Shown in pieces: positions 15,521 to 62,342 of a DNA stretch of 64,000 bases. Below the pieces are notes generated by a model, which was not told the DNA's origin, made no database searches, and was given only the letters and a program-made list of their open reading frames with translations. Position numbers and translations under genes: made by a program. The stretch covers positions 22,100-86,099 of the forward strand of contig DAOPQC010000001.1 of assembly GCA_035358815.1 (NCBI GenBank). The letters are read 5' to 3'. The stretch comes from Thermoanaerobaculales bacterium (lineage in GTDB: Bacteria; Acidobacteriota; Thermoanaerobaculia; Thermoanaerobaculales; Sulfomarinibacteraceae). Within the stretch, counting starts at the first letter, position 1; each line of letters starts with the position of its first letter.

Positions 15521-15555
15521 GCAATGCTCAGCCCCGCTGATGCGGGACGAAGGTC

Positions 15556-35500: not shown

Positions 35501-35734
35501 TCAGGCCTTCGGCCGCAGCCCCCTGATCGCCGCCTCGACCTCGCCCGGTTCCGGGAAGCGCCCGAGGGTGCGCTTGGAGAACACCAGTTCGCCGTCGACC
35601 GTGACGTCGAAGACGCCGCCGCTGCCGCGGATCAGCTCGGCCTGCGCGCCGAGCTCTTTCTGAAGGTCGGCCGCCAGCCCGGCGGCCCGCGGGAGGTAGT
35701 TTCAGGACCCGCAGTACTCGATGGTGATGCGCAT
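35501..35734 (-). CDS. Rdx/SelW-like small thioredoxin-fold selenoprotein; the in-frame TGA at 35702-35704 is read as selenocysteine (CGSU redox motif)
   Basis: Hand translation of the minus strand gives ATG(35734) R I T I E Y C G S TGA N Y L P R A A G L A A D L Q K E L G A Q A E L I R G S G G V F D V T V D G E L V F S K R T L G R F P E P G E V E A A I R G L R P K A stop (35501). 'GGAGGGGAG' lies upstream of the ATG. The CxxU position and 'GGxFxVxVDGxLxxSK..GRFPE' match the Rdx family. The gene is absent from the ORF track because the TGA splits it. Confidence 0.75.
35669..35687 (-). promoter_or_regulatory. Candidate bacterial SECIS stem-loop downstream of the Sec-UGA
   Basis: The mRNA reads UGA-N14-GGCCGCC-GGGCU-GGCGGCC, a perfect 7-bp stem with a G-rich 5-nt apical loop. 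It starts 15 nt after the UGA. Confidence 0.55.
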
Positions 35735-35985
35735 GCTCCCCTCCACTTCGATCCAGACAACAGCGGACGGCGCCGATCCGTTCCCCGTCACGCGCGCCGC
35801 CGGTGGACATCGCAGGTGCTTTCTCATCATGGACTTGTGGCACACGGCCGAGGTGGGGTGCTACGATCGGGGCGGCGGTCCCAACGCCGATGCTCGGAGG
35901 TCCGTACACTCGATGGAGACAGGTGATGACGCCGGGAAAGCTGTGCGTCCTTCCCGCGGCGGGAGAGGACCGGACTGCGGCTGCG

Positions 35986-36561
35986 ATGGATGACCGCGAG
36001 GCGGTGCGTGCCGCGAGGGCCGGCGACGACGACGCGTTCGCTGCGCTGGTCCGGCGCTACTCGGGCGGTCTCCACCGGGCGATCGCCAGGATCCTCGCCG
36101 ACGATGCCGAGGCCTGGGACGTGGTCCAGATGGCCTTCGTGCGCGCCTGGCAGGGCCTCGACCGCTACGACGAGCGATGGAGCTTCTCCACCTGGCTGTA
36201 CCGCATCGGCACCAACCTCGCGATCGACCTGCTCCGCTCGCGGACCAGCCGCGAGAAGGCCCACCGGGCGGGCGCCGAGCACCGTTTCCGGGTCGTCGGT
36301 GAGATGCCTCCGGCCTCGGAGCTCGCCGACCATCGCGAGGTCGACCGCCTGTTCGACGAGCTGGTGGGCTGCTTGACACCGCAGCAGCGCAGCGCCTTCG
36401 TGCTGCGCGAGCTGCAGGGGCTCGACACCGCCGACGTCGCCAAGGCGCTCGGGTGCACGACGACGACGGTGCGCAACCACGTGTTCCAGGCACGCAAGCT
36501 CCTGCGCGAGGAGCTGGCCCGCAGGTTCCCGGAGTACCTGCCGCCGTCACGGAGAGCTTGA
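35986..36561 (+). CDS. ECF (sigma-70 group 4) RNA polymerase sigma factor
   Basis: Region 2 'FAALVRRYSGGLHRAIARIL..AWDVVQMAFVRAW' and region 4 'LTPQQRSAFVLRELQGLDTADVAKALGCTTTTVRNHVFQARKKL'-like. Alternative start at 35926. Confidence 0.85.
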   Translation: MDDREAVRAARAGDDDAFAALVRRYSGGLHRAIARILADDAEAWDVVQMAFVRAWQGLDRYDERWSFSTWLYRIGTNLAIDLLRSRTSREKAHRAGAEHRFRVVGEMPPASELADHREVDRLFDELVGCLTPQQRSAFVLRELQGLDTADVAKALGCTTTTVRNHVFQARKLLREELARRFPEYLPPSRRA

Positions 36562-36562
36562 T

Positions 36563-37069
36563 ATGCGCTGCACCGACATCCCCGATCTGCTCGACGCCTA
36601 CCTGGCGGACACCCTGGATGAGCCCCGCCGCAACGCGGTGCGCGGCCATCTGAGGGCATGCGAGCGCTGCCGGGCGGCGGCGGTCGACGCCGACCCGAGC
36701 CTGCTGTTCGTCGCCGCGGCGCCGGGCCCGCCCGACCCGGTCCGCGTCGAGGACACGGCCCGAGCGGTGATCGCCCAGGTCCGCCAGCAGCGGATGCAGC
36801 GGCGGCTCGGCCACCGCCGGCCCTGGCTGGCGGCCGCTGCCGCGGTGGTGCTGTCGCTGGTCACGGTCGCCGGATGGCGGCTGCTGGCGCCCGGCAGCGG
36901 CCCCGACGACGCGGGCCCGGACGCCGCCCGGGTGGCCGAGACTCCCAGCCCGCCGCCCCGGATCGAGGTCGACATGGCCGGCGAAGGGGTCCGCGTCTAC
37001 CAGTACGCAGACCAGCAGGACTCGGACACGGCAGTCACCTTCATCGTCAACCCCGAGCTGGAGCTGTGA
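36563..37069 (+). CDS. Anti-sigma factor (zf-HC2 type, single TM)
   Basis: It starts 2 nt after the sigma gene stop. N-terminal 'H-x3-C-x2-C' ('RGHLRACERCRAA') and one TM segment ('WLAAAAAVVLSLVTVAGW'). Confidence 0.7.
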   Translation: MRCTDIPDLLDAYLADTLDEPRRNAVRGHLRACERCRAAAVDADPSLLFVAAAPGPPDPVRVEDTARAVIAQVRQQRMQRRLGHRRPWLAAAAAVVLSLVTVAGWRLLAPGSGPDDAGPDAARVAETPSPPPRIEVDMAGEGVRVYQYADQQDSDTAVTFIVNPELEL

Positions 37070-37072
37070 TCC

Positions 37073-37789
37073 ATGGCCCGCCACCTGACAGTGCTGATGG
37101 TGCTTCTCTCGCTGGCCGCCGGGGCGCCGGCCCTGTGGGCGAGCGAGCCGACCACGGTCCGGGTCTTCCAGGTCCGCCACTGCGCGGTCACCGAGGTGGC
37201 GGCTGCCGTGCAGAAGCTCTTGACCGAGGACGGAAGCCTCACCGTCCACCCGCGCCAGTCGCGGATCACGGTCCAGGATCGTCCCGAGGTCGTGGCCGCC
37301 GCCGCCGAGATGATCGCGAAGATGGACCGCTCGCCGGACCGCTACCTGATCGAGGTGGTGCTGCTGCAGGGCGTGGCCCAGGAGCTCCCTCCCGGCCAGC
37401 AGGCGCCGGTCGACGCGCGGCTGAAGCGGATGTTCCCGTTCGTCGCCTACCGCCGCATCGGTGCCACGAGCTTCGACGGCGTCATGGGCGACCCGGCGTC
37501 CGCCGACCTCGGCGAGGGCCACCGAGTGTCCTTCCTGGCGAGCTCGCTGGGGATCAGCGACGACACCCCCTGGGGCATCCCCGACACCGCCAACCGGGTC
37601 CACCTGCAGTGGCTGACCCTGCATCGGCTCACGACCGATCGGACGGGCAAGCAGCGGTCGGTGGAGATCCTGAGAACGAGCGTGTTCCTGTCCGAGAAGC
37701 AGGAGGTGTTCATCGGCGCCGGCGCGTCCGAGGACTCGAGCCAGGGCCTGGTGCTGATCCTCCAGGCGCACGAGATCGGGGGCGACTAG
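37073..37789 (+). CDS. Periplasmic protein with a secretin N-domain-like module
   Basis: Signal peptide. 'VRVFQVRHCAVTEVAAAVQKLLTEDGSLTVHPRQSRITVQDRPEVVAAAAEMIAKMD' resembles secretin N1/STN-type domains. The gene is tightly packed between the anti-sigma gene and gspF. Confidence 0.5.
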   Translation: MARHLTVLMVLLSLAAGAPALWASEPTTVRVFQVRHCAVTEVAAAVQKLLTEDGSLTVHPRQSRITVQDRPEVVAAAAEMIAKMDRSPDRYLIEVVLLQGVAQELPPGQQAPVDARLKRMFPFVAYRRIGATSFDGVMGDPASADLGEGHRVSFLASSLGISDDTPWGIPDTANRVHLQWLTLHRLTTDRTGKQRSVEILRTSVFLSEKQEVFIGAGASEDSSQGLVLILQAHEIGGD

Positions 37790-38998
37790 TTGCCCGAGTT
37801 CCTCTGTCGGATCGGCTCCCCGGACGGCTCGGTGCTCGAGCTGCGACGGGTCGCCGTGTCGATGGAGGCTGTGCAGCGGGAGCTGGAGAGCGAGGGCTTC
37901 CACGTCTTCAGCGTCGGCCGCGCCAGGTCCCGGCTCCGCGTGCCGCTGGTGTCGCGGGCCGAGAAGGTCCCGTCGCAGGACTTCCTGCTCTTCAACACCC
38001 AGCTGCGCACCCTGCTTCGCGCCGGCCTGCCGCTCGCCCAGTCGCTCGAGCTGCTCAAGGCGCAGCAGACGCACCCCCACTTCCGCGTCCTGCTCGACAA
38101 GGTCCACCAGCAGGTGACGACCGGGGTGTCGCTGTCCGACGCCTTCCTGTCGCTGGGCGACGTCTTCCCGAAGCTCTACGCCAACTCGCTGCGCGCCGGC
38201 GAGCGGTCGGGCGACCTCGAGAGCGTGATCGGGCGCTTCGTCCAGTATCAGCGCCTGGTCGAGTCGGTCCGCAAGAAGATCGTCGCCGCCCTGACCTACC
38301 CGGCGGTCCTGGTCGCGCTCGCGGTGGCCCTGGTGGTGCTGCTGGTGGCCTACGTGATCCCGAGGTTCTCGGACTTCTACACCCAGTTCGGGTCCGAGCT
38401 CCCGCTGCCGACCCGGATCGTGCTCGGGGTCGCACACACGGTCGAGAGCAACCTGATCCTGATTATCGTCGGCGGGGGGCTGGCGATCTGGGGCTTCCGG
38501 GCCTGGAAGGCGTCGCCGGCCGGCCGGCGGGTGGTCGATCGCTGGACGCTCCGGCTGCCGCTCCTGGGACGGCTCGCCCAGCAGTTCGCCCTGTCCCAGT
38601 TCACGCGCTCGCTGGCGGTGCTGCTGCATGGCGGCACCCCGATGGTGCCGGCGCTCGAGACGGCGGCGACGTCGGTGAAGAACGTCTACATTTCCGAGCT
38701 GTTCCTCGGCTGCGTCCGGGAGGTGCAGGAGGGGCGGCCGCTGTCCGACGCGCTCGAGGACACCGGCCGGGCCCCGGGCCTCGCCCTGGCCATGATCCGG
38801 GTCGGCGAGTCCACCGGAGCGCTGCCCGAGATGCTCGAGCACACCTCCAACTTCTTCGACGAGGAGATCGAGTTCTCCCTGACCCGGATCACCACCCTGT
38901 TCGAGCCGATGATCCTGGTGTTCATGGGCATCGTCATTGCGGGCCTGCTGCTGGCCGTCTACTATCCGCTGCTCAGGCTCGTGTCGACGATCGCGTGA
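37790..38998 (+). CDS. gspF: Type II secretion / type IV pilus platform protein (GspF/PilC family)
   Basis: TTG start. 402 aa with two T2SSF repeats and three TM segments. Confidence 0.85.
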   Translation: MPEFLCRIGSPDGSVLELRRVAVSMEAVQRELESEGFHVFSVGRARSRLRVPLVSRAEKVPSQDFLLFNTQLRTLLRAGLPLAQSLELLKAQQTHPHFRVLLDKVHQQVTTGVSLSDAFLSLGDVFPKLYANSLRAGERSGDLESVIGRFVQYQRLVESVRKKIVAALTYPAVLVALAVALVVLLVAYVIPRFSDFYTQFGSELPLPTRIVLGVAHTVESNLILIIVGGGLAIWGFRAWKASPAGRRVVDRWTLRLPLLGRLAQQFALSQFTRSLAVLLHGGTPMVPALETAATSVKNVYISELFLGCVREVQEGRPLSDALEDTGRAPGLALAMIRVGESTGALPEMLEHTSNFFDEEIEFSLTRITTLFEPMILVFMGIVIAGLLLAVYYPLLRLVSTIA

Positions 38999-39005
38999 GG
39001 TAGCC

Positions 39006-40649
39006 ATGGCGACAGATCCCACACTGGACCGGACGCTGGTCATGCTCGATGAGCAGGACGCGACCGAGGTCCACGACGACGTGGCCGAGGCCCGCGCCCT
39101 GGCTGCGCGGATCGGCCTCCCGTTCGATCCCCTCGACGAGTTCCACATCGATCCCGAGCTGTTCCGCGCGATCCCGGTCGAGGTGATGCTGCGCTACCAG
39201 TTCCTGCCGCTCGCGTCGGACGGCGAGGTCCTGCGGGTGGTGATGGCGGACCCATCGAACGTGGTCCAGCTCAACGAGGTGGAGCTGGCGCTGGCGCGTC
39301 CGCTCGACGTGCTGGTGGGGCCGCCGACGCGGATCGCGGACATCCTCGAGAAGTCGGAGTCGACGCAGCGCGTGCTCGACGAGGCGACGGAAGGCTTCCA
39401 GCTGCAGCTGGTCCAGGAGGCGGAGGACGGCGAGGAGGTGCTGTCAATCGACCGGATCACCGCCGACTCGTCGCCGATCATCCGGCTGGTCGACTCGGTG
39501 CTCTTCAACGCCATCCAGCGCAGGGCCTCGGACATCCACATCGAGACCCAGGACCGCGAGGTGGTGGTCAAGTACCGGATCGACGGCGTGCTCTACCAGG
39601 CCATGAAGTCGATCGACAAGCGCCACCACTCGACCATCATCTCCCGGATCAAGGTGATGTCCGAGCTCGACATCGCCGAGAAGCGGATCCCCCAGGACGG
39701 CCGCTTCAAGGTGCGCTTCTCCGGCCGGACGATCGACTTCCGGGTGTCGATCATGCCCAACGTGCACGGCGAGGACGCGGTCATCCGGATCCTCGACAAG
39801 GAGTCCACCAACGCCGAGTTCCGGACCCTGAACCTGAGCGTGCTCGGGCTCGAGGAGGACACCAAGGCCCAGCTCCGGAAGTTCATCCGGGAGCCCTACG
39901 GAATGGTGCTGGTCACGGGGCCGACCGGGTCGGGCAAGACGACCACCCTCTACGCCTGCCTGTCCGAGATCCAGTCCTCCGAGGACAAGATCATCACCAT
40001 CGAGGACCCGGTCGAGTACCAGCTCAAGGGCATCACCCAGATCCCGGTGAACGAGAAGAAGGGGCTCACCTTCGCCCGCGGCCTGCGGTCGATCCTCCGC
40101 CATGACCCCGACAAGATCATGGTCGGAGAGATCCGTGACGAGGAGACGGCGGCGATCGCCGTGCAGTCGGCGCTGACCGGCCACCTGGTGTTCACCACGG
40201 TGCACGCCAACAACGTGGTCGATGTCATCGGCCGCTTCCTCAACATGAACGTCCACCTCTACAACTTCGTGTCCGCCCTGAACTGCGTGCTGGCGCAGCG
40301 GCTGGTGCGTCGAATCTGCGTCCACTGCAAGCGCCCGGCGACCGTTTCCGACCAGCTGCTCGACGACTCCGGGCTGGAGCCCGCCCGCTACCGCGACTTC
40401 GTCTTCTACGAGGGCGCCGGGTGCATCGAGTGCAACGGCACCGGCTACCGGGGGCGGCTCGCGATCGCCGAGCTGCTCAACCTGTCGGACAACATCCGGC
40501 AGCTGATCATCGACCACCGGTCGGCGGCCGAGATCAAGCGCGCCGCCAAGGCCGAGGGCATGCGCTTCCTGCGCGAGTCGGCGCTCCAGAAGGTCTTCGC
40601 CGGGGAAACCACGCTCCATGACATCAACAAGGTGACCTTCGTGGAATGA
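39006..40649 (+). CDS. gspE: Type II secretion / type IV pilus assembly ATPase (GspE/PilB family)
   Basis: The ATG at 39006 lies inside ORF 38937..40649. T2SSE_N domain, Walker A 'GPTGSGKTTT', a tetracysteine motif ('CVHCKRP...CIECNGTGYRGR') and 'TGHLVFTTVHAN'. Confidence 0.9.
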   Translation: MATDPTLDRTLVMLDEQDATEVHDDVAEARALAARIGLPFDPLDEFHIDPELFRAIPVEVMLRYQFLPLASDGEVLRVVMADPSNVVQLNEVELALARPLDVLVGPPTRIADILEKSESTQRVLDEATEGFQLQLVQEAEDGEEVLSIDRITADSSPIIRLVDSVLFNAIQRRASDIHIETQDREVVVKYRIDGVLYQAMKSIDKRHHSTIISRIKVMSELDIAEKRIPQDGRFKVRFSGRTIDFRVSIMPNVHGEDAVIRILDKESTNAEFRTLNLSVLGLEEDTKAQLRKFIREPYGMVLVTGPTGSGKTTTLYACLSEIQSSEDKIITIEDPVEYQLKGITQIPVNEKKGLTFARGLRSILRHDPDKIMVGEIRDEETAAIAVQSALTGHLVFTTVHANNVVDVIGRFLNMNVHLYNFVSALNCVLAQRLVRRICVHCKRPATVSDQLLDDSGLEPARYRDFVFYEGAGCIECNGTGYRGRLAIAELLNLSDNIRQLIIDHRSAAEIKRAAKAEGMRFLRESALQKVFAGETTLHDINKVTFVE

Positions 40650-41557
40650 GCTGGGCACGCTTCCTCATCAGTCCGCCGCCGACCACGAGCTGGATCCTCG
40701 ACGGCTCGGTGGTCGCGGCGATCCGGCGCGAGCCCAGGGGCGGCGTCCTGTGGGCCGCCGAGGCGACTCCGCCCGGGTCGTTCGAGGTCGGCCCGGTCGG
40801 CCTGCAAGCGGTCGACCGCCGCAAGCTGGTCGCGGCGCTCGGCTCGATCCACGGCCGCCTCGAGGGCGCGCGCCGTGCGGCCGTGGTGGTGCCCACCGGC
40901 TGGACGCGGAGCTACGTGCTCTCCTTCCAGGATCTGCCCCGCCGGCAGCGCGAGATCGAGCAGGTCGTGCAGTGGCGGCTGAAGAAGCTGCTGCCGGCGC
41001 CGCCGTCGGAGCTGAGGATGTCGCTCGTGAACCTGGCGCCGACCGACGGTGCCCGGCCCATGCTCGTGATGGTGGCGATGGAGCGCGCGCTGTCAGAGCT
41101 CGAGGCAGCGTTCCGGGAGGTCGGGGTCGAGCTCGGCCTGATCACCGGCCAGATCTTCGCGCTCGCCGCCGCCTCCGCACCGGGGACGCGGCTGCTGGTG
41201 CAGCAGGAGCAGGGCTTCCTGAGCCTGCACCTGTCCGAAGGCGACGACCTGCGGCTGATCAGGACCAAGCACCTCGCGTCGTCGGGCCGGGTGGGCGAGG
41301 CCGTCCGGCGGGAGCTCAACCTCACGCTGGGCTACATCCGCGAGACCCTCGGCGTGCCCGGGGAGCTCGGCATCGAGGTGTTCGCCGACAGCGCCGTGCT
41401 CGAGCGGGAGATCGAGGACTGGCGCTTGATGCAGCCCGGCGTGACGAGGCTGCCCGAGCGGCCGGCACCGCCCTTCACGGTGGCCGGTGCGGAGGGCCGC
41501 CTCGGCCAGGCGCGGATCCAGCCGCTGTGGGCGGTGATCGCGGAGGCCCACCCGTGA
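40646..41557 (+). CDS. PilM/GspL-like (actin-fold) assembly protein
   Basis: 4-nt overlap with gspE. Its position and ~300-aa size match PilM. The sequence similarity is only loosely PilM-like. Confidence 0.55.
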   Translation: MSWARFLISPPPTTSWILDGSVVAAIRREPRGGVLWAAEATPPGSFEVGPVGLQAVDRRKLVAALGSIHGRLEGARRAAVVVPTGWTRSYVLSFQDLPRRQREIEQVVQWRLKKLLPAPPSELRMSLVNLAPTDGARPMLVMVAMERALSELEAAFREVGVELGLITGQIFALAAASAPGTRLLVQQEQGFLSLHLSEGDDLRLIRTKHLASSGRVGEAVRRELNLTLGYIRETLGVPGELGIEVFADSAVLEREIEDWRLMQPGVTRLPERPAPPFTVAGAEGRLGQARIQPLWAVIAEAHP

Positions 41558-42126
41558 TGACGCCGAACCTCGCCGAGCGCCCCTTCCTCAACACCCGCCC
41601 GGTGTGGCTGGTCGCGGCGGCGGCCGGCGCGCTGGCGCTGGCGCTGATCGTCGCCAACGCCGTCTCCTTCGTGTACACCGGCAGCACCCTGGCGCCGCTC
41701 GTCGAGCGCCGCGACCAGCTGGTGGTCGAGGAGCGGGCGCTCGTCGCCAGGCTGTCGGGCCTGGTGACGGACCTGTCCAAGGTCCCCTGGAGATCGCTGG
41801 GGGCGCGGATCGACGCCACCAACGTCATCCTGCGCGAGCACAACTTCTCCTGGCTCGCGATGCTCGATGACGTGGAGCGGGTGATGCCGTACGACGTGCG
41901 GATCGTCCAGATCTCTCCCGACGTTGGTCCGGCCGAGGTCGACCTGAACCTGAGGGTGATCGCGAAGACCCGCGAGGCGATGATCGAGTTCCTGGAGAAC
42001 CTGGTCTCCGATCCGAGCTTCTCGAGGCCGACCCCACAGTCCGAGACCACGCCCGAGCAGTCGCAGTCGGGCTCGTATCAGATGTCACTCAGCGTGCGCT
42101 ACCACCCGCCGAAGGAGTCGTCGTGA
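41557..42126 (+). CDS. PilN-like bitopic inner-membrane protein
   Basis: The ATG overlaps the upstream stop (GTGATGA). N-terminal 'NLAERPF' followed by a TM segment, as in PilN/fimbrial assembly proteins. Confidence 0.65.
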   Translation: MTPNLAERPFLNTRPVWLVAAAAGALALALIVANAVSFVYTGSTLAPLVERRDQLVVEERALVARLSGLVTDLSKVPWRSLGARIDATNVILREHNFSWLAMLDDVERVMPYDVRIVQISPDVGPAEVDLNLRVIAKTREAMIEFLENLVSDPSFSRPTPQSETTPEQSQSGSYQMSLSVRYHPPKESS

Positions 42127-42878
42127 CCGTGGACCTGCGTCCGTGGCGGCGCCTGCTGCCGGTCTGGCTCCCGGCGGTCGGGCTGTGCCTGATCGCCGCC
42201 GCCGCCTACGTCTGGCAGAGCTCCGCGTCGGGAGGCCGCGCCGCTGGCGTGCGCGCCGAGATCGACGAGCTCGAGACCGAGATCGGCCGCCTGCAGGGCC
42301 TCCTCGCCCAGGTTGAGGGCGAGCGGGCGACGGTGGCGAGCGTCAACGAGACCTTCGACCTGCTGTACGGCAAGGTCTTCCGGAGCCTCGACGATCGTCT
42401 GACCAACATCCTCCGGGAGGTCGGCCTGGCGACCAGGAGCGCCGGCCTGCTGCCGGGCGCCTACAAGTACCAGGCCGAGGAGGACAAGAAGACCGGGTAC
42501 GTGAGGTTCTCGATCGTGTTCTCGGTGAACGGCCAGTACGCGCAGATGCGGCAGCTGATCGCCGCGATCCAGTCGAGCCCGGAGTTCCTGGTCGTCGAGG
42601 GGATCGCGTTTTCCGGGGATGAGCAGGCGGCCACCCAGGAGCTGATGATCGCGGTGAGGGTCGCCACCTATCTCTCCGAGGCCAGCCGGGAGACGCTCGA
42701 CCGACTGACGGGGGGCATTCGCCAGGCGGCCGCCGCCGATGCCGCGGCGACGCCTGACGGTGATGCCCAGGCGGCGCCGGGTGGCGAGCCGCCCGCGGCC
42801 GGCGGCGGTGATGCCCGGGTGACCCCAGATGGCGAAGCTCAAGTGACCGGGGAAGTCGATGCCGAATCCGAAGGATAG
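42123..42878 (+). CDS. PilO/GspM-like bitopic inner-membrane protein
   Basis: 4-nt overlap. TM segment, then a coiled coil 'EIDELETEIGRLQGLLAQVE', then a ferredoxin-like C-terminal part. Confidence 0.6.
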   Translation: MTVDLRPWRRLLPVWLPAVGLCLIAAAAYVWQSSASGGRAAGVRAEIDELETEIGRLQGLLAQVEGERATVASVNETFDLLYGKVFRSLDDRLTNILREVGLATRSAGLLPGAYKYQAEEDKKTGYVRFSIVFSVNGQYAQMRQLIAAIQSSPEFLVVEGIAFSGDEQAATQELMIAVRVATYLSEASRETLDRLTGGIRQAAAADAAATPDGDAQAAPGGEPPAAGGGDARVTPDGEAQVTGEVDAESEG

Positions 42879-43449
42879 CCGGGGCCGCGTGGCGCTGCTG
42901 GTCGGCCTGATGGTCGTCCTGGGGGCGGTGGTCGTCGTGCAGCTGCTGCGCGATCGCAGCGCGGTCAGCCGCGGCCTGTCGGACAAGCGGATCACCTACG
43001 AGGCCCACTCCCTGTCGCCGTTGGAGCCGCTCGAGCCTCGCGGCGACACCGGCAGTGCGGAGTTCCGCAGGAACCCGTTCATCTATGGGGTGCCGCCGAC
43101 CGCCACGCCGCGGCCGGTCACGCCGCTGCCGACGCGACCCCCGGTGCAGAGGACGCCACAGCCGACGCCGACGCCGCGCATGGCTCGCGGCGCTGACGGC
43201 AGGCCCAAGCCGCCGCCGCCGCCGTTCGATCGTGAGTTCCTCGGCCACTTCGGCCCCCTGAGGATGCAGGTCGCTGCGTTCCGCAGGCCGGGGCTGTCGC
43301 CGGAGCTCTCCGAGATCGAGGTCGCGAAGGTGGGCGACGTGCTCGACGGCATCTTCATCGTTCGCGAGATAGGATTGGAGTCGGTCAAGATCGGCTTCGT
43401 GGGCTATGACCCGTCGGAGGACACCCGTGTTCCGTTGTCTGAGAACTGA
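42859..43449 (+). CDS. PilP/GspC-like membrane-anchored, proline-rich periplasmic protein
   Basis: TM segment, Pro-rich linker and a small C-terminal beta domain. Its position is immediately before the secretin gene. Confidence 0.45.
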   Translation: MPNPKDSRGRVALLVGLMVVLGAVVVVQLLRDRSAVSRGLSDKRITYEAHSLSPLEPLEPRGDTGSAEFRRNPFIYGVPPTATPRPVTPLPTRPPVQRTPQPTPTPRMARGADGRPKPPPPPFDREFLGHFGPLRMQVAAFRRPGLSPELSEIEVAKVGDVLDGIFIVREIGLESVKIGFVGYDPSEDTRVPLSEN

Positions 43450-45850
43450 CGCTCCGGCGTTCCGGATCGCCGTCCTTGGCGCGCTGCTGGCCGCCGCCGT
43501 CGGCTGCTCGACCCAGCAGGCCGCGCAGGCCAGCAAGGAGGCGGTCAAACACGAGAACTGGGACGCCGCCGTCTACCACTACCTCGAGCTGGTGGCGAAG
43601 GAGCCGGAGAACCTCGAGTACCGGATCGGGCTCCGGCGCGCCCGCCAGAACGCCGCCCACGTCCACTTCCAGCGCGGCGTTGCCCTCCGCGACGCCGGTC
43701 GGGTGGTCGAGGCTCGCGACGAGGTCCAGATGGCGGTCCAGCTCGACCCGACCCACCAGTTCGCGGAGCAGGTCCTCGACGGCCTCAACAAGGAGATCGA
43801 GATCCTCTCCGGTCCCGGCGGCAAGGGCGAGCTCGAGGACCTGAAGCGCCAGGCCCGCGAGGCGAAGGTGAAGCCGCCGGTCCTCGACCCGGCGTCCAAG
43901 GAGCCGGTCACCCTGGTGTTCCCCAGCCCGAAGCCGGTCAAGGAGATCTACGACGCCATCGGCAAGGCGTACGGCTTCAACGTGATCTTCGATCCCAAGC
44001 TGAAGGACGACCGGCTCCCGGTCGAGCTGCGCGACGTCACCGCCGAGCGGGCGCTCGAGATCGTGATGCAGGCGGCCGGCCACTTCTACAAGGTGCTCGA
44101 CCCGAAGACGATCATCGTCGCCGAGGACAACCCGCAGAACCGGCGCGACTACGAGGACCTGGTCATCAAGACCTTCTTCCTGTCGAACGCCGACGTCAAG
44201 GAGGTCGACAAGCTGCTGCGCTCCTTGATCGAGGCGCGGCGGCTCTCGACCAACGAGCAGCTCAACGCGATCACGCTGCGCGACACCGCCGACAAGGTCG
44301 CGATCGCCGAGAAGCTGATCACGGTCAACGACAAGGCCAAGGCCGAGGTGCTGGTGGATGTCGAGCTGATGGAGGTCGACACCGGGGACCAGTCCGAGAT
44401 CGGGATGAGCCTCTCCACCTACAGCTTCATCCTGGCCGCCGACACGGCGCAGACCAGCCCGGACGCGCCGGAGGGCAGTTCCTTCCTGGACGACCTGTCG
44501 AACATCGCCCGCGAGAACGTGTTCATCAACGTGCCGTCGGTGACCATCAACCTCGTCAAGTCGAGCGGCAAGGCGTCGATCCTCGCCCAGCCGCAGCTGC
44601 GGATCACCGAGGGCGAGAAGGCCTCGCTGCACCTCGGCGACCGGGTGCCGATCCCGGTGACCTCTTTCAACACCTCGAACACCATCGGCGGCAACGTGGT
44701 GCCGATCACCTCCTTCCAGTACCAGGACATCGGCATCAAGATCGAGGTCGAGCCGCGGGTCCACCACAACCGTGAGGTCACGCTCAAGCTGACGGTCGAG
44801 GTCTCGCAGCTCGGCGACACCGTGCAGGTCGGTCCGGGTCAGGAGGCGGTGACGATCGGGACCCGCACCATCACCTCGGTGATCCGGCTGCGCAGCGGCG
44901 AGTCGAGCCTGCTGGCCGGCCTGATCCGCAAGGACACGACCTCCGGCTCGACCGAGATCCCGCTGCTGTCGGACATCCCGTACCTCGGCCGGCTGTTCAC
45001 CAACACCAAGAAGCAGACCAAGACCACCGATCTGGTGCTGACCCTGACCCCGCACATCATCCGCTTCCCGGCGATCGAGGAGGAGGACCTGGCGCCGGTC
45101 TGGGTGGGCACCGAGAGCCGGATCTCCTTCTTCGGCTCGAGCTCGCCGCGCGTGCAGTCCGGGACCTCGCCGCAGGGGCCGTTCGACTCGGGCGGTGAGG
45201 ACTACCAGGGCGACCAGGGCGAGAAGCCGTCCGAGGGCTCGGGGGAGGACGCGCCGGCGCCCTACGGCGTCCGCGGCCGGTCGGTCAGCCCGCGGCGGGT
45301 GACGCCGCCAACCGGTGACACCGGGGGCGTCGAGCTGGTTCCCAGGGGCGACAGCCGCGACACCTGGCCCGGGGATGACGGCGCGCCGCAGCAGCAGGCC
45401 GAGGAGACCAAGGCAGCGGCCGTGGTCGATGACAGCCGGCCACCGCTCATCATCGGCCTCGAGCCGGCGGTGGCGGCGCTGCCCAGCGGGAGCGAGATCG
45501 TGCTCCAGCTGGTGGTGAAGGGCGCGCCGGGCTCGTACCGGCTGCCGCTGGGCCTGTCGTTCGATCCGGGACGGGTGACCGTGCAGTCTTTCGAGCCGGC
45601 GCCCGGCGTCAACGTCATGGAGGGCAGCATCGAGCTCGACAACGGCTGGATGTCTCTCGACCTGGTGGTGCCGGCGGCCGACGACGGCGCTCGTGCCATC
45701 GGTGCGATCACGGTGCGGGCAGAGGCGCCCGGCCCGGTTCCCCTGGCCTTCACCTCGCCCGGCGCGACCATGTCCGACGGCACGGTGCTGCCGGTGGCGG
45801 CGAGCGACGGCGCGGTCTTCGTGTCCGCGGCCGGGGAGGGCGGGGGCTGA
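43406..45850 (+). CDS. Secretin (GspD/PilQ family) with an N-terminal lipoprotein-TPR module and a C-terminal cohesin-like extension
   Basis: 'LLAAAVGCS' lipobox. TPR-like helices occupy residues ~40-130. The canonical secretin C-domain runs 'ILAQPQLRITEGEKASLHLGDRVPIP...IPLLSDIPYLGRLF'. A ~250-aa tail follows. The start is uncertain because it overlaps the upstream gene. Confidence 0.85.
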   Translation: MTRRRTPVFRCLRTDAPAFRIAVLGALLAAAVGCSTQQAAQASKEAVKHENWDAAVYHYLELVAKEPENLEYRIGLRRARQNAAHVHFQRGVALRDAGRVVEARDEVQMAVQLDPTHQFAEQVLDGLNKEIEILSGPGGKGELEDLKRQAREAKVKPPVLDPASKEPVTLVFPSPKPVKEIYDAIGKAYGFNVIFDPKLKDDRLPVELRDVTAERALEIVMQAAGHFYKVLDPKTIIVAEDNPQNRRDYEDLVIKTFFLSNADVKEVDKLLRSLIEARRLSTNEQLNAITLRDTADKVAIAEKLITVNDKAKAEVLVDVELMEVDTGDQSEIGMSLSTYSFILAADTAQTSPDAPEGSSFLDDLSNIARENVFINVPSVTINLVKSSGKASILAQPQLRITEGEKASLHLGDRVPIPVTSFNTSNTIGGNVVPITSFQYQDIGIKIEVEPRVHHNREVTLKLTVEVSQLGDTVQVGPGQEAVTIGTRTITSVIRLRSGESSLLAGLIRKDTTSGSTEIPLLSDIPYLGRLFTNTKKQTKTTDLVLTLTPHIIRFPAIEEEDLAPVWVGTESRISFFGSSSPRVQSGTSPQGPFDSGGEDYQGDQGEKPSEGSGEDAPAPYGVRGRSVSPRRVTPPTGDTGGVELVPRGDSRDTWPGDDGAPQQQAEETKAAAVVDDSRPPLIIGLEPAVAALPSGSEIVLQLVVKGAPGSYRLPLGLSFDPGRVTVQSFEPAPGVNVMEGSIELDNGWMSLDLVVPAADDGARAIGAITVRAEAPGPVPLAFTSPGATMSDGTVLPVAASDGAVFVSAAGEGGG

Positions 45851-45851
45851 G

Positions 45852-46325
45852 ATGATCCGCCACCTGCACCGCCGCCGCAGCGAGAGGGGCTTCACGCTCG
45901 CTGAGCTGGTGATGGTCGCGGCGCTGATCGCGGTCCTCTCAACGATGGCCCTGCCGGTGGCCAAGTTCACCGTCAAGCGCCGCAAGGAGGCCGAGCTGCG
46001 GCTCGCGCTGCGGCTGATGCGCAACGCCATCGACGAGCACAAGCGCCTGTCCGACCAGGGCTTGATCCCGTTGACCCTGGGTGGCGAGGGCTACCCGGAG
46101 GACCTCGACGTGCTGGTGGAGGGCGTCGACCTGGTGGGGCAGGAGACCAAGCGCCGCTTCCTGCGCCGCATCCCGTGGGACCCGATGACCGGAGAGCAGG
46201 AGTGGGGCAAGCGGTCCTACCAGGACGACCCCGACTCTGACAGCTGGGGGAGCGAGAACCTCTACGACGTGTACTCGTTGTCGGACGGCACCGCCATCGA
46301 CGGCACGAAGTACAAGGACTGGTGA
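45852..46325 (+). CDS. GspG-like pseudopilin (prepilin-type N-terminal cleavage/methylation domain)
   Basis: ATG at 45852. The leader is 'MIRHLHRRRSERG|FTLAELVMVAALIAVL'. Confidence 0.8.
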   Translation: MIRHLHRRRSERGFTLAELVMVAALIAVLSTMALPVAKFTVKRRKEAELRLALRLMRNAIDEHKRLSDQGLIPLTLGGEGYPEDLDVLVEGVDLVGQETKRRFLRRIPWDPMTGEQEWGKRSYQDDPDSDSWGSENLYDVYSLSDGTAIDGTKYKDW

Positions 46326-46861
46326 GCATGAACATCCCGGATATCGGACTCGGGACCGCGGCCCTCCGCCGGGCGACCGCGAGCGAGCCCTGGGGCCCCG
46401 CCTCCGCCGGTCGCGGGCCGTCCGTCAGTCCGCGGCCCCCCGCCCGCGGCCGCCGGGCCGGCGGGTTCACGCTGATCGAGCTGATGGTCGTGGTCGCGAT
46501 CATCGGCATCCTCGCGGTGGTGGCGCTGCCGGCGATGCGGACGGCGCCCCTCAAGGCCCGCGAGGCGGTGCTCAAGGCCGACCTCTACCAGATCCGGTCA
46601 TGCATCGACCAGTACCTCGGCGACAAGGGCGAGTACCCGGAGTCGCTGCAGGGCCTGGTCGATGCCGGGTACCTGCGCTTCGTGCCGGTCGACCCGATCA
46701 CCCGGTCGGCCGACACCTGGGTCGAGCTCGAGGCCACGCCGACCGAGACCGAGGACCTCGAGCCGATCGAGGAGGACCTCGGCGGCACGGTGGGCATCAT
46801 CGACGTCAAGTCGGGGGCCGACGGAGTCGCCCTTGACGGCACGCTCTACTCGGACTGGTAA
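46322..46861 (+). CDS. gspG: GspG-like major pseudopilin with an unusually long predicted leader
   Basis: 'G|FTLIELMVVVAIIGILA' lies 46-48 codons after the only upstream in-frame starts (GTG 46322, ATG 46328). The C-terminal part, 'YPESLQGLVDAGYLRFVPVDPIT', is GspG-like. Confidence 0.7.
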   Translation: MSMNIPDIGLGTAALRRATASEPWGPASAGRGPSVSPRPPARGRRAGGFTLIELMVVVAIIGILAVVALPAMRTAPLKAREAVLKADLYQIRSCIDQYLGDKGEYPESLQGLVDAGYLRFVPVDPITRSADTWVELEATPTETEDLEPIEEDLGGTVGIIDVKSGADGVALDGTLYSDW

Positions 46862-46865
46862 CGGA

Positions 46866-47756
46866 ATGTCGTCGGGCGTGCGGGAACCGCGGATCGCTGA
46901 GAGCCAGCCGGGATCGGCGTCGTTCCCGCTCCCGTGCCCGTTCCCGCTCCCGGATGTGACATCGATCCGGTCGGCAGCGGCCTCGCGGTCGGGGCCCGTG
47001 GACACGGCACGGACTGGCCACCGGCGAGAAGTTGGGAACGGGGACGGGAACGGGAACGGGAACGCGGAGGGGGGCTACACCCTGGTCATCGTGGTGCTGG
47101 TGGTCGCCATCATGTCGATCATGATGGCGGTGGCGGTGCAGACCGTGGAGTTCCAGATGCGCCGCGAGCGGGAGGCCGAGCTGATCTTCCGCGGCCAGCA
47201 GTACGTCGAGGCGATCCGGCTGTACCGGATGAAGTACGGCCGCTACCCGATGCGGATGAAGGAGATCTGGGAGGCCAACCCGAGGGTCGTCCGCAAGCGG
47301 TGGAAGGACCCGATGACCGACTCCGAGAGCTGGGGCCTGATCTTCCTCGGCCAAGAGGGCCGGCGGATCGGCGCCGACAACCCGCTCGGGAACACCCCGA
47401 ACGCCACCCGGACCGTCACCTACGACGGCAGCGGCCTCGATGAAGGCGGGCGGGACGATGGGACGACGATGGGGCCGGACGGCGAGAAGATCGGGCCGAT
47501 CGTCGGCGTCCACTCCACCTCGTGCGAGGAGAGCATCAAGGTCTACGAGGGGCGGACCACCTACTGCGAGTGGCAGTTCGTGTTCCGTGAGGTGCGCGGG
47601 GTCGGCGGCGGCCGCCCCCCGTCGGGCGGCTACCATCCCGGCAAGACCCCCGTCGTGCCCGGTGGGGGCGAGGGCGGCGGGAGCGGCGGCGGCGGTGGCG
47701 GCGGTGGCGGCGGCGGGAGTCCGCCGCCGGGCTACACGCCGACCATCTACCCGTAA
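46866..47756 (+). CDS. Pseudopilin-like protein (no Glu5) with a Gly-rich C-terminal tail; the 5' leader is built from intergenic-repeat sequence
   Basis: 'GG|YTLVIVVLVVAIMSIMMAVAV' hydrophobic helix. The only in-frame starts upstream are ATG 46866 and GTGs at 46878, about 46956 and 46998. The tail reads 'GGGEGGGSGGGGGGGGGGGSPPPGY'. Confidence 0.6.
   Translation: MSSGVREPRIAESQPGSASFPLPCPFPLPDVTSIRSAAASRSGPVDTARTGHRREVGNGDGNGNGNAEGGYTLVIVVLVVAIMSIMMAVAVQTVEFQMRREREAELIFRGQQYVEAIRLYRMKYGRYPMRMKEIWEANPRVVRKRWKDPMTDSESWGLIFLGQEGRRIGADNPLGNTPNATRTVTYDGSGLDEGGRDDGTTMGPDGEKIGPIVGVHSTSCEESIKVYEGRTTYCEWQFVFREVRGVGGGRPPSGGYHPGKTPVVPGGGEGGGSGGGGGGGGGGGSPPPGYTPTIYP
46915..47066. repeat. C-rich/G-rich inverted hexamer arms lying inside the 5' region of a pseudopilin ORF
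   Basis: 'CGTTCCCGCTCCCGTGCCCGTTCCCGCTCCCGG' (46921-46952) faces 'GGGAACGGGGACGGGAACGGGAACGGGAACG' (47034-47064). Confidence 0.8.
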
Positions 47757-59028: not shown

Positions 59029-59077
59029 GTGGTCGGCGTTCTGCCGGAACATCAACCACCGTGCCTGGCACCATTAC
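59029..59077 (+). repeat. Left copy of the direct repeat flanking the hicA/hicB-HEPN cassette
   Basis: GTGGTCGGCG..CCGGAACATCAACCACC-GTGCCTGGCACCA. The core CCGGAACATCAACCACC at 59044-59060 recurs at 60544-60560. Confidence 0.75.
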
Positions 59078-59138
59078 TGGCACCATTACAGAAGAAAACG
59101 AAAGACTTGGTGGTCATGGTCTTGACATTCGGACAAAA

Positions 59139-59378
59139 ATGTCCGAGATTGTTGATGTGACCGGGGCGGAGTTCATCAAGAAGGTCAAGAAGCTGGGGCG
59201 GCGACGTGGAGTGTCGGTCGAGTTCATCGTCGAGCGAGGGAAAGGCAGCCACGGAACCCTCTACTTCGGCGGCCGTTTCACGGTCGTCAAGCACAGAGCT
59301 GCCGAGCTGACGCCGGGACTGCTCCACGCGATGCTGAAGCAGCTCGGCCTGGCGCTCGATGACCTCCGCGGTGAGTAG
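59139..59378 (+). CDS. hicA: HicA-family mRNA interferase toxin
   Basis: The ATG at 59139 lies inside ORF 59061..59378. 'GKGSHGTLYFGGRFTVVKHRAAELTPGLLHAMLKQLGL' is typical of HicA (YcfA-like). Confidence 0.8.
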   Translation: MSEIVDVTGAEFIKKVKKLGRRRGVSVEFIVERGKGSHGTLYFGGRFTVVKHRAAELTPGLLHAMLKQLGLALDDLRGE

Positions 59379-59387
59379 GAGCGAGAC

Positions 59388-60449
59388 ATGACGCACGAGT
59401 TTGCATACCCGGTGGTTCTGGCGACGGACGCGTCCGGAGGTTACGTCGTGAGCTGCCCGGACCTGCCCGAGCTGCTCACCCAGGGTGAGGACCGCGCAGA
59501 CGCCGTCGCCAGCGCCATCGACGCTCTCGAGGAGGCAATCGCGGGTCGAGTCCGCCGGGGCGACGACATCCCGGATCCGTCGGAGCCTCCCGAGGACCTG
59601 GATGTCGAGCTCATCCGGTTGCCGCCGATCATGGCAGCCAAGGCCGCGCTCGCGATCGCGCTCCGGGAGAGCGGGCTGAGCCAATCTGCGTTCGCCCGCG
59701 AGACCGGAGTTGACGAGAAGGAGGTCCGTCGGCTCCTCGACCCTCGGCACCCGTCGAAGCTCCCGCGGCTCCAGAAAGCTCTCCTGTCCGTCGGCAGGGA
59801 GGTGGAGATACGGGTCGTGCCCGTGGCGCGCCCGTCATCTCCCCGTGAATTCGACCAAGTGCCAAGCCAACCTTGTCGAGTCCGGGAAGCCAAACAGCCC
59901 GGATACTCGACCATGGCACGATCAACCGACAGGCGCGCTGATGAGAAGCTGCGATTCGCGAAGGTGCACCTCCGCGAACTCATCGACCACGCCCAGGTTG
60001 GAGGCCACGACAAATGGGAGACCGCTCATCAGGAGAGCTGCTTCTATCACCTCGCCGGGGCGGTGGAGGCTGTCCTGCACGAGATCAACGCCGGCTATGG
60101 GTTGAACCTCGGGCTCAAGGACATCGACTGGAACACTGTTCGCGCCAAGCTCACCACGTCGAACCAGTCGTCGCCAGCGTTCGATCTCCTTTTGGCCACG
60201 AAGACGGACAAGTCGAGCTGGCTTTGGCAGCTGTTCGAGTGGCGCAATCACGGAGCTCATCGTGGGCGAGTCGGGGAAATGATCCACCTGTCGACCAGCA
60301 GGGTGGTGGACAACGAGTTCAAGGACCCCAGGACCGGCGAGGTGCAGTCGGTATACCCAGAGCTGGGCTGCCTGGACGTGCTCAGGAGATTGACTGTGGA
60401 CGTCGAGCACCTGATCGATCGCTGCCGCATCATCGACCCCAGTCTCTGA
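59388..60449 (+). CDS. hicB: HicB-family antitoxin (HicB fold + HTH) fused in frame to a ~190-aa C-terminal HEPN-like domain
   Basis: N-terminus 'YPVVLATDASGGYVVSCPDLPELLTQGEDRADAVASAIDALEEAI' is HicB-like. 'SQSAFARETGVDEKEVRRLL' is the HTH. A Pro/Ser linker follows. The helical C-terminal domain carries 'EWRNHGAHRG', which fits the HEPN R-N-x3-H motif. There is no stop between the parts. Confidence 0.7.
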   Translation: MTHEFAYPVVLATDASGGYVVSCPDLPELLTQGEDRADAVASAIDALEEAIAGRVRRGDDIPDPSEPPEDLDVELIRLPPIMAAKAALAIALRESGLSQSAFARETGVDEKEVRRLLDPRHPSKLPRLQKALLSVGREVEIRVVPVARPSSPREFDQVPSQPCRVREAKQPGYSTMARSTDRRADEKLRFAKVHLRELIDHAQVGGHDKWETAHQESCFYHLAGAVEAVLHEINAGYGLNLGLKDIDWNTVRAKLTTSNQSSPAFDLLLATKTDKSSWLWQLFEWRNHGAHRGRVGEMIHLSTSRVVDNEFKDPRTGEVQSVYPELGCLDVLRRLTVDVEHLIDRCRIIDPSL

Positions 60450-60450
60450 G

Positions 60451-60575
60451 GTGGTCGGCGGACACTCCGCGGTCGGCGCACCGAAGCGCAAACCGCACAG
60501 TCGGTGGCGTATCTTGCCAACCCTCTGGTTGGAACGGCCGTGACCGGAACATCAACCACCTCACCCGGCACCACC
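60451..60575 (+). repeat. Right copy of the direct repeat flanking the hicA/hicB-HEPN cassette
   Basis: GTGGTCGGCG (60451-60460, immediately after the hicB stop), a 78-nt extra segment, then CCGGAACATCAACCACC-TCACCCGGCACCA (60544-60573). Confidence 0.75.
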
Positions 60576-60654
60576 TTCGCGAATGCTCGACGTTGCGGCG
60601 GCCGGTTTGAGCTGCACACGCATCATCGCCCGCTGGTCAGTGCGCGCCTTGACC

Positions 60655-61179
60655 CTACTTGCGAAGGCTGCTGGCTTTTTCGGCTCTTGCCGCCTTGATC
60701 TTGAAACGGTTGACGATGGCGTCTGTGATGAACGCCCTGTTGGTCCGCTGGATCGCCATCGCTACCTCGATCGCGTCGCGGCTGGACAGCACGGAGCTCG
60801 CCACCAGCCGCAGCATGATTTCGAGTCCCCACTGCACGCTGACGTCGGATGCTCTGCACGCTGCACGCAGCGCTCGGTCGTTTGTCACGCAGCACCAACC
60901 GTTGTCCCTGGCCATGACCAGGCACACGACGTCGTCGAACGCGAGCCCCGGCCTCCTCACCGCCGCTTCCAGGAGCTGGCTGAGCGAGGGCACAGCAATC
61001 GATAAGCCGAGCTCCTCGCAGACCGTGACGTCAAGCTGATCGACTTTGGCGAGGACTTCCGTGGCGACGAACAGGGGCCCCGCTTCTCTCGCCACAAGCG
61101 CGAGCACCGAAGGCTCTGTATCCAGATAGTCGATCAGCACATTCGCGTCTACGATCAGCGGACGGTAGTCGCTGATCAA
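60655..61179 (-). CDS. PIN-domain nuclease (DUF4411-like)
   Basis: The TTG start comes immediately after the stop of the upstream Xre-ImmA gene. 'LIVDANVLIDYL' is the first PIN acidic motif. Later 'CVTNDRALR' resembles the PIN C-terminal D motif. Confidence 0.7.
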   Translation of the reverse strand: MISDYRPLIVDANVLIDYLDTEPSVLALVAREAGPLFVATEVLAKVDQLDVTVCEELGLSIAVPSLSQLLEAAVRRPGLAFDDVVCLVMARDNGWCCVTNDRALRAACRASDVSVQWGLEIMLRLVASSVLSSRDAIEVAMAIQRTNRAFITDAIVNRFKIKAARAEKASSLRK

Positions 61180-62322: not shown

Positions 62323-62342
62323 GGCTCCCCCCCTCGATGAAG

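Follow-up and report, generated by a model that had tools for sequence, protein, structure and literature searches.

In Pseudomonas aeruginosa, the PUMA3 genes vreA (encoding a soluble, STN-containing protein of the periplasm), vreI (an extracytoplasmic function (ECF) sigma factor) and vreR (a sigma factor regulator) are located directly 5' of the hxc genes for a type II secretion system (T2SS), and overexpression of VreI induces these hxc T2SS genes (PMC2729926). A comparable gene arrangement was analysed here in a 64,000-nucleotide stretch of contig DAOPQC010000001.1 (assembly GCA_035358815.1, Thermoanaerobaculales bacterium, Acidobacteriota; in the following, the window), where an ECF sigma factor, a zf-HC2 anti-sigma factor and a 238-aa secretin-like protein, here denoted the mini-secretin, are encoded immediately 5' of the genes for a type IV filament machine. 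A second point of reference is the RpoE-RseA-RseB system of Enterobacteria, in which RseB, encoded next in the operon, binds the periplasmic domain of RseA and gates proteolysis, while the promoter is autoregulated. Control of secretion machines by ECF sigma factors is already known for the type III secretion system (T3SS; ECF32 group), the Hxc T2SS (VreI) and the type VI secretion system (EcfK), and also for HrpL in the case of T3SS and SigP in the case of the type IX secretion system. None of these known systems is built from sigma/zf-HC2/mini-secretin parts, and secretins are not mentioned in the main text of the ECF classification 2.0 paper.

The cluster consists of 13 consecutive plus-strand genes at 35926-47756, in the order sigma, anti-sigma, mini-secretin, F, E, M, N, O, P, D and the pseudopilins pp1, pp2 and pp3. 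The window has a G+C content of ~70%, and codon-position G+C analysis was used to tell real genes from the many spurious open reading frames (ORFs), while gene identities were taken from Pfam and NCBIfam profile searches; no RNA family was found when the entire window was compared with Rfam at gathering thresholds. With the best starts, the intergenic spacings are, in gene order, +1, +3, 0, +7, -4, -4, -4, -20, -44 (or -23), +1, +2 and +4 nt, bearing out the gaps of at most 7 nt or overlaps given in an earlier note on this DNA. That note spoke of a run of twelve plus-strand genes; the strand and the identities agree with the Pfam, NCBIfam and fold results, but the genes it listed number 13. 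Its sigma start at 35986 was not upheld, ATG 35926 being the likelier start on account of the Shine-Dalgarno sequence GGAGAC and an N-terminus conserved among orthologues. The regulatory part of the cluster comprises the following features:

35880..35909, plus strand: putative ECF-type promoter, CCCAACG-N14-TCCGTACAC, with -35 'AAC' and -10 'CGTA', 17-46 nt 5' of the sigma start codon
35926..36561, plus strand: ECF sigma factor, 211 aa (Sigma70_r2 3e-17, Sigma70_r4_2 2.8e-15)
36563..37069, plus strand: anti-sigma factor, 168 aa (zf-HC2 PF13490 6.5e-08, one transmembrane (TM) segment)
37073..37789, plus strand: mini-secretin, 238 aa (predicted signal peptide and N3-like Secretin_N, followed by a predicted reduced beta core of eight strands resembling that of secretins)

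The sigma factor scores 95 bits against the sigma70-ECF model TIGR02937 (cut-off 42.9), and only regions 2 and 4 are matched. The anti-sigma gene is co-oriented with the sigma gene at a distance of 1 nt, and its product carries zf-HC2 at aa 3-37 with the HxxxCxxC signature (33 bits, cut-off 22.2) as its sole Pfam match, no FecR domain being found, followed by a TM segment at 87-110 and a 58-aa periplasmic tail that ends in a conserved beta-hairpin-like motif. All features of an ECF sigma factor with a class I (zf-HC2) anti-sigma factor were thus found, the promoter by sequence only. The likeness to PUMA3/Hxc lies in the combination of an ECF sigma factor, a membrane anti-sigma factor and a small periplasmic protein with a secretin/TonB-type N-terminal domain, placed 5' of a T2SS cluster; moreover, HxcQ, the secretin of Hxc, is a lipoprotein, and the window secretin appears to be one as well. 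However, VreR is of the cell-surface-signalling type, as opposed to the zf-HC2 anti-sigma factor with its short tail. VreA combines STN with a TolA/TonB-like C-domain, whereas the protein found here combines Secretin_N (N3-like) with a secretin-like beta core, and the order vreA-vreI-vreR differs from sigma/anti-sigma/mini-secretin, Hxc moreover being canonical Gsp-type. No TonB-dependent receptor is encoded in the cluster, and the FecI/FecR/FecA type of arrangement was not found there. The parts of the two systems are not homologues, and the type of anti-sigma factor, the domains of the periplasmic protein and the gene order differ; PUMA3 is the closest functional analogue, and the cluster is not a member of that system. 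The combination of an ECF sigma factor, a single-pass anti-sigma factor and a periplasmic protein from the neighbouring gene recurs in RpoE-RseA-RseB, but RseB bears no resemblance to secretins, zf-HC2 is missing from RseA and the genes under sigma-E control do not form a secretion machine next to it.

With a probability of roughly 55%, we read the 13 genes as an operon in which a self-contained acidobacterial ECF sigma/zf-HC2 anti-sigma/periplasmic mini-secretin module lies directly 5' of a complete, compact type IV filament machine and acts as its on-switch. The anti-sigma factor would keep the sigma factor at the inner membrane, while the mini-secretin would bind or monitor the short periplasmic tail of the anti-sigma factor, in a manner comparable to RseB-RseA or VreA-VreR. 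An envelope signal would free the sigma factor, which would then fire the CCCAACG-N14-TCCGTA promoter 5' of its own gene, and read-through across the whole cluster would provide positive feedback as well as production of the secretion or pilus machine.

The upstream regions of the sigma genes in related loci could not be aligned save for two features, namely a short -10-like hexamer (GATAAT or TACGAT) and a CCCAACG-N14-TCCGTA(G/C)AC block, which is followed by the Shine-Dalgarno sequence and the start codon and is flanked by DNA that is not conserved. Besides the window, 19 related loci have the exact core in the same place, and close variants occur in 4 more (23 related loci in all). Within the 64-kb window the exact core is found once (0.09 expected), and a position weight matrix built on 14 instances gives the site at 35880-35909 a score of 27.6 bits, the runner-up scoring 15.6 bits, inside the shuffle range. 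Neither the exact pattern nor the matrix revealed a second ECF-type promoter in the cluster or the rest of the window, the next-best site, at 61176 on the minus strand, being at shuffle level. ECF promoter consensus sequences have an AAC / CGT(A) character (e.g. SigW, TGAAAC-N16-CGTA), and it is because of this character that the block is judged to be ECF-type; the ECF-dependent promoter anticipated in the earlier note is represented by one conserved candidate just 5' of the sigma gene. A scan for terminators over 34-52 kb gave no plus-strand terminator-like site within the cluster, and a sigma-70 scan over the same range gave a single weak match, which lies inside the ATPase gene and does not rise above chance. 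The simplest reading is that 35880-35909 would be an ECF promoter under autoregulation from which the downstream genes are driven too, and that the 13 genes would be co-transcribed as one operon.

Further features were observed upstream of the sigma gene. In six loci of Thermoanaerobaculales relatives (L016, L019, L020, L023, L028 and L032) short tandem-repeat arrays, e.g. (CCTTCTAA)n, are located ~100-300 nt 5' of the sigma promoter, and in L016 the array is preceded by its own inverted complement, (TTAGAAGG)n; the window itself is without tandem repeats upstream of the promoter. The supposed gap 5' of the sigma gene contains a 77-aa SelW/Rdx-like selenoprotein gene (35501-35734, minus strand), divergent from the sigma gene, the product of which begins MRITIEYCGS-U-NYLPRAAG, a CxxU motif arising from the in-frame TGA at 35702-35704. 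Several related loci also show this N-terminal coding sequence together with the TGA 5' of sigma, and in L005 one gene caller annotates a 77-aa gene at this position.

The product of 37073..37789 had been described as a small Secretin_N protein, and the domain is indeed present at aa 29-89 (PF03958 8.4e-10, 39 bits, cut-off 28.2) as the sole Pfam match, with neither a PF00263 match nor an STN domain, Secretin_N standing in place of the latter. It is, however, not Secretin_N alone, as the predicted model matches whole secretins. The AlphaFold2 model, built on 23 homologues with a mean pLDDT of 83, has a signal peptide; residues 28-84 form an N-domain of beta-alpha-beta-beta-alpha topology, and eight more strands follow in residues 90-233. 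When the model was compared with the PDB by Foldseek, all 35 of the 35 matches at E <= 0.001 were secretins (T2SS GspD/EpsD/XcpQ, phage f1 pIV, PilQ, InvG and BfpB), aligned over 250-370 columns with E ~1e-8 to 1e-6 and a probability of 1.0, but with a TM-score of just ~0.4. An hhalign comparison with the secretin of the cluster places mini-secretin residues 25-102 on secretin residues 250-326, i.e. the last N domain and the first barrel strand, and the C-terminus (...QEVFIGAGASEDSSQGLVLILQA) resembles the secretin ending ...GGL...ELLIFITP. Judged from the model, the 238-aa protein is a miniature secretin with an N3-like domain and a reduced beta core. The PxLxxIPxLGxLF segment, which contributes to outer-membrane insertion and is represented in the main secretin by PLLSDIPYLGRLF, is missing from the mini-secretin sequence, and since it is missing, the mini-secretin may be periplasmic, if the segment does serve outer-membrane insertion. 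When 1.84 billion cluster representatives were searched exhaustively with a mini-secretin profile, 5897 of them matched at E <= 0.001. The 111 representatives at E <= 1e-30 define a sizeable unannotated family, most of the listed matches being full-length proteins of 225-280 aa, and named members carry only the labels "hypothetical protein" or "secretin N-terminal domain-containing protein".

Two Aminicenantes proteins were the remotest hits in the genome scan, at 23% identity (hhalign: 197 columns, probability 96%). They sit in a three-gene unit of an ECF sigma factor (190 aa), a zf-HC2 anti-sigma factor (~174 aa) and a mini-secretin (~252 aa), in which adjoining genes share 4 nt and on either side of which unrelated genes run in convergent or divergent orientation. 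Further stand-alone triads, i.e. those with no filament gene in the available sequence, within ~10 kb for most loci, were found on more Aminicenantia contigs, on a contig of GCA_024449895.1, in the Acidobacteriota metagenome-assembled genome (MAG) GCA_040756905.1 and in 18 metagenome loci. The mini-secretin is paired with the sigma/anti-sigma genes in the absence of filament genes within reach in 27 loci, mostly with 4-nt overlaps. Apart from Aminicenantia, two other Acidobacteriota lineages are represented among the stand-alone triads. Wherever the contig extended upstream it was preceded by the anti-sigma and sigma genes, and in the loci examined it was never met beside filament genes without the sigma pair. 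The fused and the stand-alone classes also have a C-terminal periplasmic motif of the anti-sigma factor in common, VRVYQY..DTAVTFIVNPxLEL in the class of the window and VVSMT..GLKIVWFLNKNFEL in its Aminicenantia counterpart. Upstream of the stand-alone triads, in genomes of 37% to 60% G+C, stands TTAACA-N17-GTATAT, which equals the AAC-N18-GTA spacing of the window. Because of the stand-alone triads, the constant coupling to the sigma pair, the shared tail motif and the shared promoter spacing, the mini-secretin is regarded as part of a regulatory module and not as an obligate part of the machine. The proposal that the small secretin-like protein belongs with the anti-sigma factor has thereby been strengthened, and the modules support, at the level of gene content and motifs, the idea of a "sensor link" in its general form. 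It is conceivable, albeit doubtful, that the ~240-aa mini-secretins constitute an undescribed family of periplasmic signalling partners, in which the secretin-type fold, possibly as a ring, would hold the C-terminal beta-hairpin of the anti-sigma factor and report the state of the outer membrane, the secretin or the envelope, and which in Thermoanaerobaculia and at least one other lineage would be wired to a minimal T2SS-like machine.

In seven Aminicenantia loci (L033-L037, L039 and L042) the triad occupies a conserved neighbourhood, with an M23 peptidase gene on one side, beyond which an mraZ-rsmH-ftsL-PBP-mur division/cell-wall cluster follows in most of them, and a Na:alanine symporter gene, in some loci together with an alanine racemase gene, on the other. 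This neighbourhood hints at a link to the state of the cell wall or envelope. In the window, a CsgG-family lipoprotein gene (curli-type outer-membrane channel; 19436-20485, minus strand) lies ~15 kb 5' of the cluster, and the stand-alone triad L040 likewise has a CsgG-family gene less than 10 kb away, which is probably coincidence.

The linkage of the ECF pair to the filament genes, as put forward in the earlier note, proved genuine, being kept class-wide and in a distant lineage. In species-representative genomes the mini-secretin profile found 28 loci, all but two of them in uncultured Acidobacteriota (Holophagae, Thermoanaerobaculales, Thermoanaerobaculia, Sulfomarinibacteraceae and Aminicenantes labels); one of the two exceptions is labelled Methylomirabilota and the other merely uncultured bacterium. 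By tblastn of the window proteins, the full 13-gene order was recovered in ~24 related genome loci wherever the contig suffices, with identities of 84-97% for the ATPase and down to 34% for the mini-secretin and 42% for the anti-sigma factor. The ATPase sequence was also found identical on 23 contigs, one of them from the MAG GCA_035422585.1. A further 45 Thermoanaerobaculia-type metagenome loci have the same arrangement with zero exceptions as far as the contigs reach, and the gap between the mini-secretin gene and gspF is 0-60 nt in all Thermoanaerobaculia-type loci and 0 nt in the window. The order is also kept on the distant contig L043 (sigma, anti-sigma, mini-secretin, T2SSF, T2SSE, PilM_2, three more genes and a lipoprotein TPR-secretin), where identity to the window is 71% for the ATPase, 41% for F and 28% for M. 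Since the order is kept both class-wide and in L043, the linkage is old and under selection, and no accident of a single genome.

The filament machine itself is encoded by the ten remaining genes:

37790..38998, plus strand: GspF/PilC platform protein (F), 402 aa; TTG start (alternative GTG 37832), T2SSF 1.7e-56
39006..40649, plus strand: assembly ATPase GspE/PilB (E), 547 aa; T2SSE 8.7e-131, MshEN-type N domain, CxxC...CxxC motif
40646..41557, plus strand: PilM-like actin-fold cytoplasmic protein (M), 303 aa; fold match only
41554..42126, plus strand: PilN-like bitopic protein (N), 190 aa; PilN PF05137 20.7 bits, under the cut-off of 22.8; TM 14-44
42123..42878, plus strand: PilO/GspM-like bitopic protein (O), 251 aa; PilO 24.7 bits (above cut-off); TM 10-32
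42859..43449, plus strand: PilP/GspC-like protein (P), 196 aa; assigned from position and topology alone
43406..45850, plus strand: secretin (D), 814 aa; PF00263 8.3e-41, Secretin_N, TPR_2, weak FecR_C (STN-like)
45852..46325, plus strand: GspG-like pseudopilin 1, 157 aa; ERG|FTLAEL, N_methyl 7.6e-06, weak GspG and GspH models
46328..46861, plus strand: GspG-like pseudopilin 2, 177 aa; AGG|FTLIEL, N_methyl 1.9e-08, GspG TIGR01710 51 bits (cut-off 89)
46866..47756, plus strand: minor pseudopilin 3, 296 aa; GG|YTLVI without Glu5, very weak GspK and PilX_N, Gly-rich tail

Every machine component falls below the NCBIfam equivalog cut-offs; GspD, GspF and GspG are still the best-scoring named models for their proteins. 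The F protein gives 300 bits with GspF TIGR02120 (cut-off 424) as compared with 251-259 bits for the PilC models, all below cut-offs, whereas the ATPase is tied between GspE (539.6 bits, cut-off 630) and PilB (539.4 bits). Against the PDB, the ATPase reaches 440 bits with PilB of Geobacter and Myxococcus and 354 bits with EpsE, a lead that is inflated because the EpsE chains are without the N-terminal domain. No sequence match to M was found in Pfam, NCBIfam or the PDB, and its 141 homologues include none with a Pfam domain and no sequence-level relative beyond its own lineage. The AlphaFold2 model of M (pLDDT 89.7), however, is matched best by PilM in Foldseek (5eoy, 2ych; E ~1e-16, TMq up to 0.70), followed by FtsA and then by cytoplasmic GspL/EpsL (E ~1e-10), and the L043 orthologue bears PF11104 PilM_2. 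The O protein additionally matches T2SSM_b with 19.9 bits and NCBIfam GspM_XpsM with 37 bits, weak against a cut-off of 60. P, which is not a lipoprotein, starts with a TM anchor and runs through a Pro-rich linker into a strongly conserved ~70-aa C-terminal domain; no PilP, GspC, HR or PDZ similarity was found in Pfam, NCBIfam or the PDB.

The secretin is laid out as a lipobox (AVGC|S), in which Cys34 is invariant among orthologues, a TPR region, an N0-like segment, one Secretin_N domain (N1), the core and a 260-aa C-terminal extension. Its score is 158 bits with the GspD model (cut-off 351), compared with 113 for MshL and 111 for PilQ, and no AMIN domain was detected. A FecR relationship was considered for the weak FecR_C match and rejected, the match being read as an N0/STN-like domain of the kind known from PupR. 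Residues 555-814 (45068-45850) consist of a Gly/Pro/Asp-rich low-complexity linker and a conserved beta-rich domain of ~130 aa, for which Pfam, NCBIfam and the PDB gave no sequence match. The C-terminus of the BfpB secretin is reported to be extracellular (PMC4453517), and if secretin C-termini are extracellular as for BfpB, the C-terminal domain found here could by analogy be surface-exposed. Pseudopilins 1 and 2 are short and have a C-terminal DGxxxDGTxYxDW motif in common; one is cysteine-free and the other has a single cysteine, so that there is no cysteine pair. Orthologues of pseudopilin 3 keep G|[YF]TL[VA][IM] and AVQTVEFQMRREREAELIFRG. Counted from the first in-frame starts, the leaders that precede G|FTL in pseudopilin 2 and G|YTL in pseudopilin 3 are unusually long (~45 and ~69 aa) and poorly conserved, and for pseudopilin 3 the gene callers differ (296, 249 or 221 aa); the starts of these two genes may be non-canonical, or the leaders truly long.

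Neither PilT nor a prepilin peptidase was found among the ORFs selected and scanned over the 64-kb window, in keeping with the absence of a prepilin peptidase noted earlier. Only three pilin genes are present, without the GspH/I/J/K minor set, and M and N are separate genes, with no fused GspL and no PDZ-containing GspC. PilM and PilN together are the split equivalent of GspL, and PilM/N/O/P correspond to GspL/M/C. The earlier statement that the GspC/L/M set is lacking was accordingly overstated, as O matches the GspM model and P has a GspC-like topology (N-terminal TM anchor, no PDZ). The homologous core of GspE/PilB, GspF/PilC, secretin, prepilin-type pilins and PilM/N/O/P is shared with canonical T2SS and type IVa pili (T4aP), but AMIN domains are absent and the secretin has an N-terminal TPR region and the 260-aa extension. 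From these profile and fold matches the machine is classified as a compact type IV filament system that combines T2SS-like pseudopilins and secretin with an unfused platform of PilM/N/O/P type. Because all curated T2SS and T4aP equivalog cut-offs were missed, it probably falls in the "generic" type IV filament class of Denise et al. 2019. Denise, Abby and Rocha described 884 "generic" systems, their generic model being meant to catch chimeras (PMC6668835). The mixed content seen in what had been termed a T2SS/T4P (type IV pilus) hybrid is real, but a hybrid of this kind is not without precedent. As in those systems, the ATPase, platform, pilins and secretin match profiles of different named types with no specific model satisfied; the searched text of that paper, however, contains neither Acidobacteria nor a sigma/anti-sigma or mini-secretin association (PMC6668835).

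Several points weigh against the on-switch reading. The tight packing runs on into unrelated housekeeping genes, i.e. those for an M16 peptidase (+29 nt), a dUTPase and an MBL hydrolase, and packing by itself is therefore not special; the cluster stands above chance because the same 13-gene order is found in every sufficiently long related locus. Internal promoters may lie inside the mini-secretin or gspF coding sequence, and in AT-rich genomes a sigma-70 promoter would be an equally good reading of TTAACA-N17-GTATAT. In the stand-alone triads, the mini-secretin could be a regulated output instead of a sensor. Candidate anti-sigma/mini-secretin fusions ("Rosetta stone" proteins) were rejected, the members of 338-398 aa consisting of a signal peptide, a Pro/Ala-rich linker and the mini-secretin. 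Co-transcription, control by an envelope signal, the contact between the anti-sigma tail and the mini-secretin, the identity of the signal and the role in secretion as opposed to pilus formation are what we infer. Alternatively, the adjacency would be merely positional, the module forming its own transcription unit with a regulon elsewhere and the filament genes being served by an internal housekeeping promoter. The independence of the module in other lineages and the spacing that also joins unrelated downstream genes agree with such an arrangement. We nevertheless hold it to be improbable, as module and machine are kept together class-wide and in a lineage at 71% ATPase identity, the mini-secretin gene and gspF abut in the window, and the scans described above gave no plus-strand terminator-like site and only the one weak sigma-70-like match.

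A different view would make the mini-secretin a structural or accessory part of the machine, such as a ring in the periplasm, a plug, or a second layer of secretin beneath the main one, with the sigma pair only regulating or monitoring and the stand-alone triads serving a machine encoded elsewhere. Its fold, in which both the N3 domain and the barrel core of true secretins are recognised, would suit this role, as would its position immediately 5' of gspF in all Thermoanaerobaculia-type loci, and periplasmic secretin-plugging proteins are known in Pseudomonas. This view appears unlikely in the face of the 27 loci without filament genes in reach, the constant presence of the sigma pair wherever the mini-secretin accompanies filament genes, and the missing PxLxxIPxLGxLF segment. 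As to the role of the machine, a type IVa-like pilus for adhesion, motility or DNA uptake, in which the pilins encoded here would be minor ones and the major pilin, PilD and PilT would be encoded elsewhere, is a possibility that we rate as rather unlikely. The separate PilM, PilN, PilO and PilP genes and the PilB structures that top the ATPase comparison point in this direction, and T4aP genes are often spread over several loci (PMC6668835). Conversely, the two main pilins are short and GspG-like, with no cysteine pair for a D-region disulfide, GspD is the best-scoring model for the secretin, in which no AMIN domain was detected, GspF outscores PilC, PilT was not found in the window ORFs scanned, and the truncated GspE chains in the PDB inflate the PilB advantage.

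What is new comprises the conserved ECF-type promoter, the mini-secretin nature of the 238-aa protein and the self-contained three-gene module. Occurring alone or joined to a filament machine across Acidobacteriota, the module offers a natural comparison for how a signalling module may capture a secretion system. The machine is informative on the origin of GspL/M/C from PilM/N/O/P, because T2SS-like pseudopilins and secretin are joined with unfused PilM and PilN. The sources are all uncultured, and the immediate value accordingly lies in annotation and hypotheses; interest rests mainly on the undescribed mini-secretin family and on its constant coupling to the anti-sigma factor in the loci examined.

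Two other regions of the window differ in composition from their surroundings. At 12044-17805 the G+C content is lower (0.62-0.66 compared with ~0.72), and the region holds genes for an LVIVD-repeat protein of 1119 aa (11 repeats) and for a HepT/MNT (nucleotidyltransferase) toxin-antitoxin pair (15556-16204, minus strand), besides a 433-aa ORF that gave no hits; it may be an acquired island. A second stretch of lower G+C content, at 59061-64000, looks like a mobile or defence-type region and contains genes for a HicA-like toxin, a regulator with helix-turn-helix and M78 (ImmA/IrrE-type) domains and a ResIII/SWI2-SNF2 helicase that extends past the end of the window.

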